From the NCBI GenBank assembly GCA_963697995.1, contig OY969110.1:158876-222875 (forward strand): a DNA stretch of 64,000 nt, written 5' to 3'. The position numbers and the translations under genes are program-made. The DNA is from an uncultured Chlamydiae bacterium (GTDB lineage: Bacteria > Chlamydiota > Chlamydiia > Chlamydiales > JAJFMB01). Below the pieces are notes generated by a model, which was not told the origin of the DNA, did not search any database, and was given only the letters and a program-made list of their open reading frames with translations. Below are positions 28,470 through 32,457 of this stretch, one piece after another; position 1 is the stretch's first letter; each line of letters opens with the position of its first letter.

Positions 28470-31331
28470 ATGAATCCAATCGATCCCTCTCTCACATCGT
28501 ATTACTTCGGCGTCAAATACGCTCACCCAAAACCTGCTGCAAACCTATTTAATAGGAGGCACGAATCGTTACGGAATAGTAAGCTCTCTTTTTTTACCGC
28601 AGCCTCCACAAGCATGGATATATTTTTCTTGAAAGCTCTTCAATACCCCCTTGTGCTTAAAGCTCTTTCTATCCTTGTCGATCAATACGATCAATACGAT
28701 ACCGATACTCCTGAAGAAAACATCATCCCTATTGAACAAAGATTGGCCATACTTCACCACAATTTCAATCTTTTGATCGAGATTGTTGCAGCACTTACAT
28801 CCCACGATTTAGCTTTAAAAGAGCTCTCCCCTATAAAAGATCACTCCCTTATTCCTTTTGCGAAAAAAAATCAGGTTAAAGACATTGAATCGGGATTTTC
28901 TTCTTTAGATGTCGAAGTCGAATCGACTCCCTCCTCTGATTGTTACGACCAATTATTGGCCCCTTACTTCATTAAAGACAAACCTCAAGAGATACCTATA
29001 GCCACTTACAAAGCTCTGCTTCAAGATTTCTTAAGTAAGATTGAAGTTTCAGAAGAGAGGCGTCAGGGAGAAAAACTAGGAGTTGAGTTACTACAGATTA
29101 GAGAGAATTGTTTTAATATAAGAAAAAAAATGAATTTTAGTATAATACCTGATTCTGAAAACGTACCCCCTTCTTTAAAAAATGAATTCAATAAAGCTGT
29201 TTTTTTAACTCGAAAAGAAGATGCTCCTAATTTTACTCCTAATAATACCGTTTTAGTAGAAACTTATGCTAAACTTAAACAAGTGAGAGAAAAGAAAATT
29301 TTGTCGCCATCCCAAATTTATGCCTTGGCTTCTCTTCAAAAAAGTATACGGGAAGCTAAAATTTTTGCAGCTTCACAACAAACTCTTACCCCAAAGGAGC
29401 GACTAAATAATCAAAGAAACGCTGTTTTCCCCCTTAAAAATAGGAAAAATGAAGTCACAGCCTTTTTAAAATCGGGTGAGCTCACACCGACCGACCTCTT
29501 AGAGACTCTTCTCTTCCAAATCGCTTGCTTCTTTGAGGTCGATAAACATTTTGCTCCAACCCTTCTTTCAACCATTCACTTTGATCAAAGCTCATTTGAA
29601 CAGGTCGATACCCATTTTGTCCCCACAAAAACGACCTTTTCAAAGTATGGGAAGGAGGGTTTCAAAGAGCAAACAAGAGATAAAAAAACTGAACAAAAAA
29701 CACATCTCTCATGGGCACATCATTTTAGCGATGCTCTCATTTCAACTAAAGTAGAAAGGCACGAAGAAGTCCTGGGGGCCACAATATTTGAATACACTTA
29801 CCTATGTGATGAGCTGATTGCGAAGAAAACAACTTATGCTAGCAAATCTCAAGAAGAGTGGAAAAGAGAGTTTTTAAAAATAAACGATATCGACCTTTGT
29901 CGCTATGATAATGATTCAAAAGAAAGCCGATACGACGATCCTTCAAAAACGGTAAAGGGAAGCATTCAAAATGCCATTCCCGGCAGGGATCTCCACTCAA
30001 GGATGCACGATCCTAAACCTTCTGATCCCGTGATCCCTCAAGAGGAACTGATCGATGCCACTCTCACCACATTTCTTTGCGGAATGTTTGATGCCCACGA
30101 AAAAAATGTGTACATTACCCCAGAGGGGAAAATTCTCTTTTTCGACAACTCCCGCTCGCTGCCTCATGCAGACATTATCATCTCTGATGGAGTTGTTATT
30201 GCAGCTTACCGATCAAGCCTGCTTTCATTACAAGGCTCCTTTATCCCATTAACTCAAGCCCAAAGAGAATCCATCTTAATAAAAATAGCCTTTTGGGAGA
30301 AAAAAATGGGGGAATTTACAGATAACAAAAATGTAATGACTCTATTTCAAAATCTTCTTAATAAAAAACAAGGTAAACTTCCTCTTTATTGGCTCGATCC
30401 CTCTTTAGTGATCAAAGCAACAAAAGCCCGCTTAGAGAGAATTAAAAAAGCTCTAAAAAAAGAAGGAGAAATCACTCTTCAAGAGTTATCTTTTGCAAGC
30501 TCCCCTTCTTTTAAACTCCTACTCCTACTCCATATCGCAACTCAAGCCAATTTATCACAAAAACCTGATGCTGCAAATTTAAGACAACTTCAAACCGACT
30601 ATTTACCAAGTGCTGGAGCTAAAGACTTTAAACGACTCATCGATAGTTGTATTAAGAAAGGACTTAACGTCGAAAAGATGTATGAATCGATTGAAGAGCC
30701 TCTTGAAATCCTCTTAACAAGGCTTTTAAAACAAGAATTTAATGGTCAAACCACTAATACTCTTTTTAAGACCCTTGTATTACAGGCCCAAGTCGATTTA
30801 AAGGACTCGAATGTGACCGCTCTTTGCGAAACAAAAGGAAGACACGAGATCATGACAACCCTAGTCGAGACGATCCTTTTAAATTATCAATTTAACCTGT
30901 ATGAACATAAAAACAATTATAAAACTTTTTTTTCAAGCATGATTGCAAAAGAAGAGGAAGAAACAGAATTAGCAGATAAGGAAAGAAAAACAGCCGCTTT
31001 AGTAACTTTCTTTACCGATACTCAATCAAAATACGTGATCCTTCCTCCGATTAACCCTCGAATCAATACTCTCTTTACCCTTCTGTATAAAGAGGGAGCA
31101 AATATTAAAGAGGTTTCGTTGGATATTTTAACACAACCATTAAAAATTCTTGTCACAAAACACGCGCTGGATCCTCTCTCCTTCGAACAATTTAAAGGGT
31201 ATTGCGATACTCTTCCCGAATCGTTAAGATCGCTTCATGAAGAGACCTTAACACAAGTACCAGAAACTTTAAGCATCGAATACGTAAAGAATGGGGAAAC
31301 TTATCGAAGTAGCGTGGTTATTCTTAAATAG
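28470..31331 (+). CDS. Large hypothetical protein with a PI3K/PI4K-like catalytic-loop motif, candidate secreted effector
   Basis: 953 aa with a GGAGG SD. Residues 541-560 read FDAHEKNVYITPEGKILFFDN, which matches DRHxxN-x7-G-x5-DFG spacing. The rest is unrecognised. Confidence 0.7.
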   Translation: MNPIDPSLTSYYFGVKYAHPKPAANLFNRRHESLRNSKLSFFTAASTSMDIFFLKALQYPLVLKALSILVDQYDQYDTDTPEENIIPIEQRLAILHHNFNLLIEIVAALTSHDLALKELSPIKDHSLIPFAKKNQVKDIESGFSSLDVEVESTPSSDCYDQLLAPYFIKDKPQEIPIATYKALLQDFLSKIEVSEERRQGEKLGVELLQIRENCFNIRKKMNFSIIPDSENVPPSLKNEFNKAVFLTRKEDAPNFTPNNTVLVETYAKLKQVREKKILSPSQIYALASLQKSIREAKIFAASQQTLTPKERLNNQRNAVFPLKNRKNEVTAFLKSGELTPTDLLETLLFQIACFFEVDKHFAPTLLSTIHFDQSSFEQVDTHFVPTKTTFSKYGKEGFKEQTRDKKTEQKTHLSWAHHFSDALISTKVERHEEVLGATIFEYTYLCDELIAKKTTYASKSQEEWKREFLKINDIDLCRYDNDSKESRYDDPSKTVKGSIQNAIPGRDLHSRMHDPKPSDPVIPQEELIDATLTTFLCGMFDAHEKNVYITPEGKILFFDNSRSLPHADIIISDGVVIAAYRSSLLSLQGSFIPLTQAQRESILIKIAFWEKKMGEFTDNKNVMTLFQNLLNKKQGKLPLYWLDPSLVIKATKARLERIKKALKKEGEITLQELSFASSPSFKLLLLLHIATQANLSQKPDAANLRQLQTDYLPSAGAKDFKRLIDSCIKKGLNVEKMYESIEEPLEILLTRLLKQEFNGQTTNTLFKTLVLQAQVDLKDSNVTALCETKGRHEIMTTLVETILLNYQFNLYEHKNNYKTFFSSMIAKEEEETELADKERKTAALVTFFTDTQSKYVILPPINPRINTLFTLLYKEGANIKEVSLDILTQPLKILVTKHALDPLSFEQFKGYCDTLPESLRSLHEETLTQVPETLSIEYVKNGETYRSSVVILK

Positions 31332-32457
31332 TCGGCCCTGAAAAAGTCCTCTCCAATAAAAAGTGCCCCCTTTGGACAAAAAAGGCGTTTTACTCCTCAC
31401 CAAACCCCGCAAGGGGGTTTAGATCGTCGTTCACCGCTTTTTTTGTTGCAAAAGGATCACTTTTTCTTTGGAGAGTGCGTGTTCTATTCGCGAAATTTTT
31501 AAGCTTTTCTCATTGTCATATAATTATACCTTGCAAAATAGGCTATGTCTCTCTTCCTCGTTAACTGCAAATTTTTCTCAAGGAACCCTTACTTTTTCAG
31601 GGCCGACTAAATAGTCGACCCTGAAAAAGTCCTCTCCAATAAAAAGTGTCCCTTTGGACAAAAAAGGCGTTTTACTCCTCACCAAACCTTGACAAGGGGG
31701 TGAACCGTCGTTCACCGCTTTTTTTGTTGCAAAAGGATCACTTTTTCTTTGGAGAGTGCGTGTTCTATTCGCGAAATTTTTAAGCTTTTCTCATTGTCAT
31801 ATAATTATACCTTGCAAAATAGGCTATGTCTCTCTTCCTCGTTAACTGCAAATTTTTCTCAAGGAACCCTTACTTTTTCAGGGCCGACTAAATAGTCGGC
31901 CCTGAAAAAGTCCTCTCCAATAAAAAGTGTCCCTTTGGACAAAAAAGGCGTTTTACTCCTCACCAAACCTTGACAAGGGGGTGAACCGTCGTTCACCGCT
32001 TTTTTTGTTGCAAAAGGATCACTTTTTCTTTGGAGAGTGCGTGTTCTATTCGCGAAATTTTTAAGCTTTTCTCATTGTCATATAATTAAACCTTGCAAAA
32101 TAGGGTATGTCGCTCTTCCTCGTTAACTGCAAATTTTTCTCAAGGAACCCTTACTTTTTCAGGACCGACTAAATAGTCGACCCTGAAAAAGTCCTCTCTA
32201 ATAAAAAGTGCCCCTTTTGACAAAAAAGGCGTTTTACTCCTCACCAAACCTTGGCAAGGGGGTGAACCGTCGTTCACCGCTTTTTTTGTTGCAAAAGGAT
32301 CACTTTTTCTTTGGAGAGTGCGTGTTCTATTCGCGAAATTTTTAAGCTTTTCTCATTGTCATATAATTAAACCTTGCAAAATAGGGTATGTCTCTCTTCC
32401 TCGTTAACTGCAAATTTTTCTCAAGGAACCCTTACTTTTTCAGGACCGACTAAATAG
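31326..32457. repeat. Tandem array of four ~281-283-bp units with 19-bp terminal inverted repeats, ORF-free
   Basis: Unit starts (aaatagtcg) are at 31326, 31609, 31890 and 32171, with the closing copy of the motif at 32452. Each junction forms the palindrome actttttcagggccgacta-aa-tagtcggccctgaaaaagt. No ORF of 60 aa or more occurs in any frame. Confidence 0.95.
31699..31725 (+). terminator. Intrinsic-terminator-like hairpin inside repeat unit 2, also present in units 3 and 4
   Basis: ggtgaac-cgtc-gttcacc is followed by gcttttttt. The same element sits at 31980..32006 and 32261..32287. Unit 1 carries aaacccc-gcaa-ggggttt at this position instead. Confidence 0.45.

Follow-up and report, generated by a model that had tools for sequence, protein, structure and literature searches.

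In the 64,000-nt stretch of contig OY969110.1 from an uncultured Chlamydiae bacterium that was analysed here (the window), a gene of unknown function encoding a 953-aa protein (28470-31331, + strand) and a convergent Trp/Tyr permease gene (32468-33715, − strand) are separated by a 1.1-kb block, which is made up of four head-to-tail units of 281, 279, 279 and 279 bp with the dinucleotide AA between them. From the evidence described below, we are confident that this block is a four-copy tandem array of a MITE (miniature inverted-repeat transposable element), a non-coding deletion derivative that retains the 19-nt termini of an insertion sequence (IS) of the IS5 family. The element itself is ordinary, and the tidy tandem arrangement alone is unusual; regular tandem MITE arrays seem to have been rarely described in bacteria.

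The array was delimited by Tandem Repeats Finder at 31325-32457, with a period of 281, 4.0 copies, 97% matches and a score of 2106, and it is both the sole tandem array and the sole long repeat family of the window. Units 1 to 4 occupy 31329-31609, 31612-31890, 31893-32171 and 32174-32452, respectively (all + strand), and their start-to-start spacings of 283, 281 and 281 bp confirm the periods given in a preliminary description of this DNA. Each unit is bordered by a 19-nt terminal inverted repeat. The first copy (TAGTCGGCCCTGAAAAAGT, 31329-31347, + strand) begins with the three bases TAG that form the stop codon of the 953-aa open reading frame (ORF), and the other seven lie at 31591-31609 (−), 31612-31630 (+), 31872-31890 (−), 31893-31911 (+), 32153-32171 (−), 32174-32192 (+) and 32434-32452 (−). 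When the window was scanned with the pattern of the 19-nt end (TAGTCGRYCCTGAAAAAGT), these eight copies were recovered with zero or one mismatch, compared with 0.02 expected by chance, and all of them are in the array. Position 7 of the left end reads G, A, G and A in units 1 to 4. The AA spacers (31610-31611, 31891-31892 and 32172-32173) join adjoining ends into 40-nt palindromes, so that the 19-bp inverted repeats, the palindromic junctions of about 40 bp and the start of the array at the upstream stop codon had all been read correctly from the letters.

Units 2, 3 and 4 differ from one another at 5-7 positions (five between units 2 and 3, the very number that had been estimated), and unit 1 differs from them at 13-17 positions, giving an inter-unit divergence of 2-6%. 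The variants are mosaic: a derived hairpin apex, described below, is common to units 2-4, while right-arm variants at three sites pair unit 1 with unit 2 and unit 3 with unit 4. No ORF within the array exceeds 48 aa or matches a Pfam family, in line with the claim that the block holds no sizeable ORF; exact-protein look-ups of two small ORFs of the units gave no recorded match, and the array had no blastn match in plasmid or phage collections. The units are contiguous and have no unique spacers, and the earlier statement that this is not a CRISPR array holds.

Short-read contigs of the same organism, recognised by their identical proteins, break at both array edges, where they reach only 23-25 bp into the outermost units. 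This is the behaviour expected of a repeat, and the copy number of four is accordingly unsupported by that assembly, as would be expected if a repeat had been mis-expanded or collapsed during assembly of the present contig. Such an artefact is nevertheless very improbable, since 5-17 positions distinguish one unit from another, a 2-bp difference in length and a substituted block being among the changes, and each unit has intact ends and spacers. In addition, the source contig is 2.05 Mb long, and the same kind of tandem junction is present in an independent metagenome-assembled genome (MAG; locus L003, see below).

The origin of the terminal repeats was traced by scanning a genome collection, with one genome per species, for the 19-mer; the loci counts given here are lower bounds. 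The 19-mer was found at more than 97 loci, and the terminal repeat of the window recurs unchanged at the ends of IS5-family elements at more than 90 loci. As judged from the record titles, the hosts include Chlamydiota (Waddliaceae and Parachlamydiales), Acidobacteriota, Planctomycetota, Verrucomicrobiota, Bdellovibrionales, Desulfobacterota, Nitrospirota, Bacteroidota and Chlorobi-type groups, Spirochaetes and several proteobacterial groups. In short-read MAGs, the 19-mer often sits one assembly k-mer from a contig end (approximately 55 in SPAdes contigs and 141 in k141 contigs), which is the signature of a multicopy repeat. Between lineages, sequence divergence begins directly inside the 19-mer.

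At 13 or more loci, inverted pairs of the 19-mer enclose 1.47-1.53 kb. At one of them (L066), the interval encodes a 459-aa protein that matches NCBIfam NF033578, 'IS5 family transposase', with 452 bits (cutoff 275), as well as Pfam DUF772 and DDE_Tnp_1, and tblastn against annotated plasmids returned 'IS5 family transposase' genes with 40-45% identity. Among these relatives, the copy on plasmid pLiSL44 of Leptospira interrogans (L100, 256-1718) has the ends TAGTCGTCCCTGAAAAAGG, matches the terminal repeat of the window at 17 of 19 positions, and is flanked by a 2-bp duplication TT within TTA-TT-TAG; a Paracoccus copy retains TAGTC.G..CTGAAC at its end. Both the ends and the target of these NF033578-type elements (TAGTCG...CTGAAAAAGT, with a 2-bp duplication in YTA-NN-TAR) are present in the window element. 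The terminal repeats of the array are therefore the ends of an IS5-family IS of about 1.47 kb that is found in at least ten phyla, and to call the repeat a 'novel satellite', as had been proposed, overstates the case. In contrast to the NF033578-type elements (approximately 1.47 kb), the window element has no transposase, is only one-fifth as long, and is unrelated in its internal sequence to the full-length copies seen. No transposase was found in the array or elsewhere in the window; since the transposase is present only in the full-length relatives, the window element is an IS5-family derivative rather than an IS, and the MITE would move only when such a transposase is supplied in trans.

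The 19-nt end TAGTCGRYCCTGAAAAAGT is near-invariant across ten or more phyla, and the transposases themselves are only about 42-45% identical (L066 versus the Leptospira and Paracoccus copies). Such strong conservation is unusual for a transposase binding site, and makes the 19-nt end a convenient probe with which to search metagenomes for members of this IS group and for its MITEs. The literature was also searched for the terminal-repeat sequence and for definitions of IS5 subgroups, with no useful result. When an autonomous partner was sought among the chlamydial loci, the Parachlamydiales locus L052 offered no more than a smaller element in degenerate form, and no transposase ORF was present at the Waddliaceae locus L054. 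At L052 (5064-6000, a Parachlamydiales MAG), the 19-nt end stands beside what seems to be a smaller, degenerate IS5-like element, in which a 117-aa ORF fragment with DDE C-terminal-like sequence is found; one 19-nt end may serve more than one IS5 subgroup. Foldbacks of 46 bp, equivalent to roughly two inverted IS ends, were also seen in two Gammaproteobacteria MAGs (L037, 4024-4069; L032, 5667 to about 5712), and these may be minimal MITEs or excision remnants.

The paired ends also reveal the target rule of the family. Of the 30 paired ends that could be tested, 21 have the same 2 bp on both flanks, for which chance would give about 6-12%, and the duplications observed comprise AG, AT, CC, TT, TC, CA, GT, CT, GA and AC. 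A flank logo built from 120 ends has T at −4 (76%), A at −3 (76%) and Y at −5 (67%). The target of this IS family is YTA-NN-TAR, of which the central NN is duplicated. A duplication of 4, 6 or 8 bp combined with shorter ends was considered and rejected: in an Acidobacteriaceae subfamily, one end natively reads GAG... in each of two copies whose flanks differ (L023 and L046), which means that TAG is encoded by the element, and the longer-duplication model also fails at L012, where only the 2-bp model fits.

The window obeys the same rule. On the left, TTA (31324-31326, the YTA half of the target) precedes the left copy of the target-site duplication AA (31327-31328), and on the right, the second copy of AA (32453-32454) is followed by TAG (32455-32457, the TAR half), so that the flanks read TTA-AA and AA-TAG; the three spacers within the array are the same dinucleotide as this outer duplication. 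Since the element tips are TAG...CTA, the tips together with the flanking YTA-NN rebuild the target at each border, and each junction inside the array likewise reads CTA-AA-TAG, which is near the consensus. As a consequence of this geometry, a single insertion is flanked by direct repeats of 7-8 bp (TAAATAG here) that lie one unit plus 2 bp apart.

Removal of the array together with one AA gives the reconstructed site ...GTT ATT CTT AAA TAG GCCATTAGAT TTA..., in which the stop codon of the permease gene lies 10 bp from that of the 953-aa gene. The insertion target here is TTA-AA-TAG, and its TAG, which served the 953-aa gene as stop codon before the insertion, is now displaced to 32455-32457. 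The ORF is intact after the insertion: because the element begins with TAG, the first three bases of unit 1 (31329-31331) supply the stop codon, and the reading frame and its stop are preserved, with the stop codon now within the MITE end. In general, a target ending in TAR and an element starting with TAG mean that a gene is not damaged when the element inserts at its stop codon. This harmless kind of insertion helps to explain how such an element persists in compact genomes. A host ORF was seen to stop at the TAG that opens the element end at two unrelated loci (window, 31329-31331; L052, 5064-5066).

An empty site was found in a metagenomic relative. At the syntenic locus L107, the gene order is DUF1295, SufE and an 843-aa orthologue of the 953-aa protein (49% identity), followed by the convergent permease, a trehalose phosphatase and a 317-aa gene, and only 35 bp, in which no terminal repeat was found, lie between the convergent genes. 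L107 is thus a site without the insertion; the orthologue is only 49% identical, so that the exact pre-insertion sequence is reconstructed rather than observed. The 953-aa protein has no Pfam domain and just one homologue among 5.8 billion proteins (49% identity over 53% of the query), and it is a lineage-restricted large protein.

Diverged single copies of the element are present at unrelated loci, where they are 67-72% identical to the window units (measured across either the full unit or its left-hand 150 nt or so) and 82-96% identical over a right-end stretch. They were found in two Waddliaceae MAGs (L003 and L099 in one; L050, L098 and a half copy in L022 in the other), and on four metagenome contigs (L102/L103, L104, L105 and L106). 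These copies are 255-278 bp long, have their own 2-bp duplications (CC, CA, AG, GA, AC and AA), and share the architecture of the window unit: an end, a long hairpin with an AACCC...GGGTT apex, a T-run, an AT-rich segment of about 115 nt, and the opposite end. The window element is consequently short and non-coding, has terminal inverted repeats shared with an IS, is flanked by a target duplication, and is missing from the corresponding site of a relative, as expected for a MITE. Dispersed copies with target duplications, here from related MAGs and metagenomes, had been named in the preliminary description as the observation that would make the repeat a plain MITE. Its suggestion of a recently amplified foldback element stands as regards the foldback (MITE) nature, for which the IS5 ends, the 2-bp duplications, the dispersed relatives and the empty site all argue; the word 'recently' does not agree with units that differ by 2-6%.

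Bacterial MITEs are described as short, non-coding elements with IS-shared terminal repeats, short target duplications and stable folds, found in intergenic or gene-end positions (PMC10969869, PMC3184786). The window unit has these general features in common with the Correia elements of Neisseria and with Chunjie of Geobacter. The ends and duplications of these elements are different; in Chunjie, the repeats are 21 bp and the duplications 9 bp (PMC3184786), compared with 19 nt and 2 bp here. Moreover, Correia and Chunjie are described as dispersed single copies, in contrast to the four head-to-tail copies with a single duplication-sized spacer in the window, and a 2024 review of prokaryotic MITEs makes no mention of the word 'tandem' (PMC10969869). 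A further likeness is to SPRITE, a small interspersed repeat that also has a terminator-like hairpin (PMC10969869, PMC3184786), yet there is no sequence relationship, and regular head-to-tail arrays are not reported for SPRITE in those sources.

A unit folds very stably, with minimum free energies of −89 (+ strand) and −101 kcal/mol (− strand; z = −7.2 and −7.7, respectively, against shuffled controls), and the structure is stable as DNA too; the second long inverted repeat that had been predicted to fold into a stem is hence borne out. In unit 3, this hairpin occupies 31912-32037 (+ strand), directly after the left terminal repeat, and has about 42 pairs; the equivalent long hairpins are at 31348-31475 (unit 1), 31631-31756 (unit 2) and 32193-32318 (unit 4). 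For eight copies from three lineages, the structure predicted by RNAalifold contains 42 pairs, 13 of which are kept by changes on both sides. For this named structure, 94.6% of the cells are paired, as against 49-62% when the partners are slid by 1-3 columns, and its covariation score was reached by none of 500 column shuffles. The comparison, which covers three independent lineages only, is suggestive of a hairpin maintained by compensatory change, without being proof. Since single dispersed copies have the hairpin as well, it is a property of the element and not of the array locus. Its conservation could reflect a requirement of transposition, selection for harmless terminating insertions, or the maintenance of palindromes by templated repair.

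A canonical intrinsic-terminator motif, GGTGAAC-CGTC-GTTCACC followed by GC and T7, is located at the apex of the hairpin in unit 3 (31980-32006, + strand), and the same motif is found in units 2 and 4 (31699-31725 and 32261-32287, + strand). As had been pointed out, it is absent from unit 1, which has the apex AAACCCC-GCAA-GGGGTTT instead, an ancestral-type hairpin similar to those of the Waddliaceae relatives. There are also weaker terminator-like sites on the − strand (31386-31365, 31660-31647, 31941-31928 and 32230-32210), and A-tract/hairpin/T-tract motifs occur on both strands of the array. In total, the array contains eight terminator-like sites, compared with 2.3 ± 1.5 in shuffles. We have compared the apex regions directly (31405-31425 in unit 1; 31688-31706, 31969-31987 and 32250-32268 in units 2-4). 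Eleven of the 13-17 differences of unit 1 cluster in 18 nt at the apex, and the changes create two perfect palindromes, CCTTG-a-CAAGG and GGTGAAC-cgtc-GTTCACC, the latter being the canonical terminator. As far as can be judged from the letters, this change resembles a templated (quasipalindrome) correction rather than a set of independent substitutions.

The same features bear on the proposal that the units are four small RNA (sRNA) genes of about 190 nt, each starting at a promoter within the AT-rich arm and ending at the terminator of the unit that follows, or else domesticated structured RNAs of MITE origin. Very stable folding of both strands (z about −7), an internal hairpin kept by compensatory changes across lineages and the canonical terminators of units 2-4 would all suit such genes, and MITE-derived sRNAs do exist in Coxiella (reviewed in PMC10969869). 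Stable folding is, however, expected for any foldback MITE, and the hairpin is equally conserved in single dispersed copies in other contexts. The promoter claim, which relied on a TATAAT box, is weak: only two promoter-like sites were found versus 2.5 expected, both on the minus strand and in units 1-2 only, so that they are lost in units 3-4. Rfam searches at gathering and permissive thresholds gave only noise-level microRNA and sRNA matches, with no family at even a weak score. A strand-assignment test of the hairpin counted roughly equal G-U and C-A events, that is, no clear strand asymmetry. We therefore consider sRNA genes, in either form, improbable, with no positive support for four promoter-to-terminator transcription units, and the region is best annotated as a MITE array rather than as a candidate sRNA locus or a new repeat class. 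The array would appear to have no dedicated cellular function. As judged from its motifs, namely the canonical + strand terminators of units 2-4 and the A-tract/hairpin/T-tract motifs of both strands, it probably acts as a transcription terminator and insulator between two convergent genes whose stop codons were formerly 10 bp apart.

As for how a single MITE became four, the arrangement is uncommon and may itself inform on how the array arose. We propose that a first insertion was followed by local growth of the array, the preferred route being tandem duplication by slippage or unequal exchange, which would be seeded by the TAAATAG direct repeats, and then homologous exchange between the units. 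All junctions are direct, all spacers are AA, units 2-4 have the derived apex, and the variants are mosaic, which together argue for local growth. Local duplication and exchange after one insertion is the reading that we prefer over serial insertion, with a confidence that is about even. Outside the window, too, ends were found to abut across a 2-bp spacer identical to the flank. Locus L003 consists of a truncated copy, AG, a full copy and AG, with both copies in the same orientation and sharing one terminal-repeat variant, and the start of L106 reads ...GACTA-AA-TAG, that is, abutting ends with the spacer AA. Together with the window, this makes 3 of about 11 loci of the MITE family. With copies that abut at three independent loci, the family could be used as a model of how transposons give rise to tandem repeats in bacteria.

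Several observations weigh against this account. In the readable 64 kb, there is neither a further copy nor a transposase, and no full-length IS was found with a subterminal sequence matching that of the window MITE. As for the terminators, an inward-facing terminator as a general device of the IS family was tried and found not to be enriched (10 of 87 ends versus 4-13 of 87 in controls). As regards growth, both routes predict an identical junction sequence, since a further insertion into the rebuilt target would duplicate the NN already there. In L003, the full copy matches a dispersed copy slightly better (100/110) than it matches its neighbour (96/110), which hints at independent insertion there, although the two neighbours have a terminal-repeat variant in common.

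This last observation would suit the serial, transposase-mediated insertion of MITEs beside a resident end, either into a rebuilt YTA-NN-TAR target or by the targeting of ends as in IS30 or in the 'targeted' transposition of IS911, which joins left ends to right ends only. We regard this as a possible route, though one clearly short of an even chance. Every border and junction offers the near-consensus target CTA-AA-TAG, exact 2-bp abutting junctions recur at the three loci named above, and a block of changes sets unit 1 apart from units 2-4, as though this unit belonged to another subfamily. A precedent is also available, since IS30 targets inverted repeats (IRs) to make IR-IR junctions, exclusively of the left with the right IR (IRL-IRR), with 2-bp duplications at hot-spot targets (PMC9333248). 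On the other hand, the four resolvable junctions are all direct, for which random re-insertion with interchangeable ends would give a chance of about 1/16, and the window provides no transposase for repeated insertion. Nor is there a clear abutting pair among the approximately 100 full-length family ends in other phyla, where the second end at L004 and L041 amounts to just 6-8 nt. We know of no IS5-family element that forms abutting end junctions. CGACTA-NN-TAGTCG junctions are seen at 6202-6215 of L004 (a Kapaibacterium MAG) and at 50-63 of L041 (a Geobacter MAG), and, with a second end of this length, they could be left over from an abutting copy, could reflect a preference for a longer target, or could be due to chance.

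A further reading along these lines would be a self-seeding MITE, in which the tips rebuild YTA-NN-TAR or a resident end recruits the transpososome, copies accumulate head-to-tail with a 2-bp spacer, and the resulting stack of terminators is retained as an insulator between the closely spaced convergent genes. We think this rather unlikely. If true, it would be a way for the transposase to turn a dispersed bacterial transposon into a tandem array resembling a satellite.

Tandem IS dimers have been described for IS30, IS911 and IS256 (PMC9333248). The dimers and IR-IR junctions of IS30 resemble the window array in that the ends are abutted, that only left ends are joined to right ends in direct tandem, and that both elements make 2-bp duplications (PMC9333248); the three junctions of the window, all direct and all with the spacer AA, have abutted ends of the IS30 kind. 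IS30 differs, however, in belonging to another transposase family with a copy-out-paste-in chemistry, and in that its junctions are transient and highly reactive, whereas the cognate transposase of the window element is of the IS5 type. Since the window units have diverged by 2-6%, their junctions are persistent and not transient. Tandem, highly similar copies of hAT-derived MITEs have also been found at inversion breakpoints of the Atlantic cod (PMC12368964), as in the window. Those arrays are eukaryotic, belong to the hAT superfamily and are much larger, and their mechanism is not established either.

Two minor observations fall outside the array. The gene order tRNA-Thr, tuf, tRNA-Trp ... 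rpoB, rpoC was seen and, together with the relatives of the MITE, points to a Chlamydiota or Waddliaceae-like origin, and a 21-bp unit is present twice (90% match) inside the permease gene at 32833-32873 of the window, which is probably insignificant.

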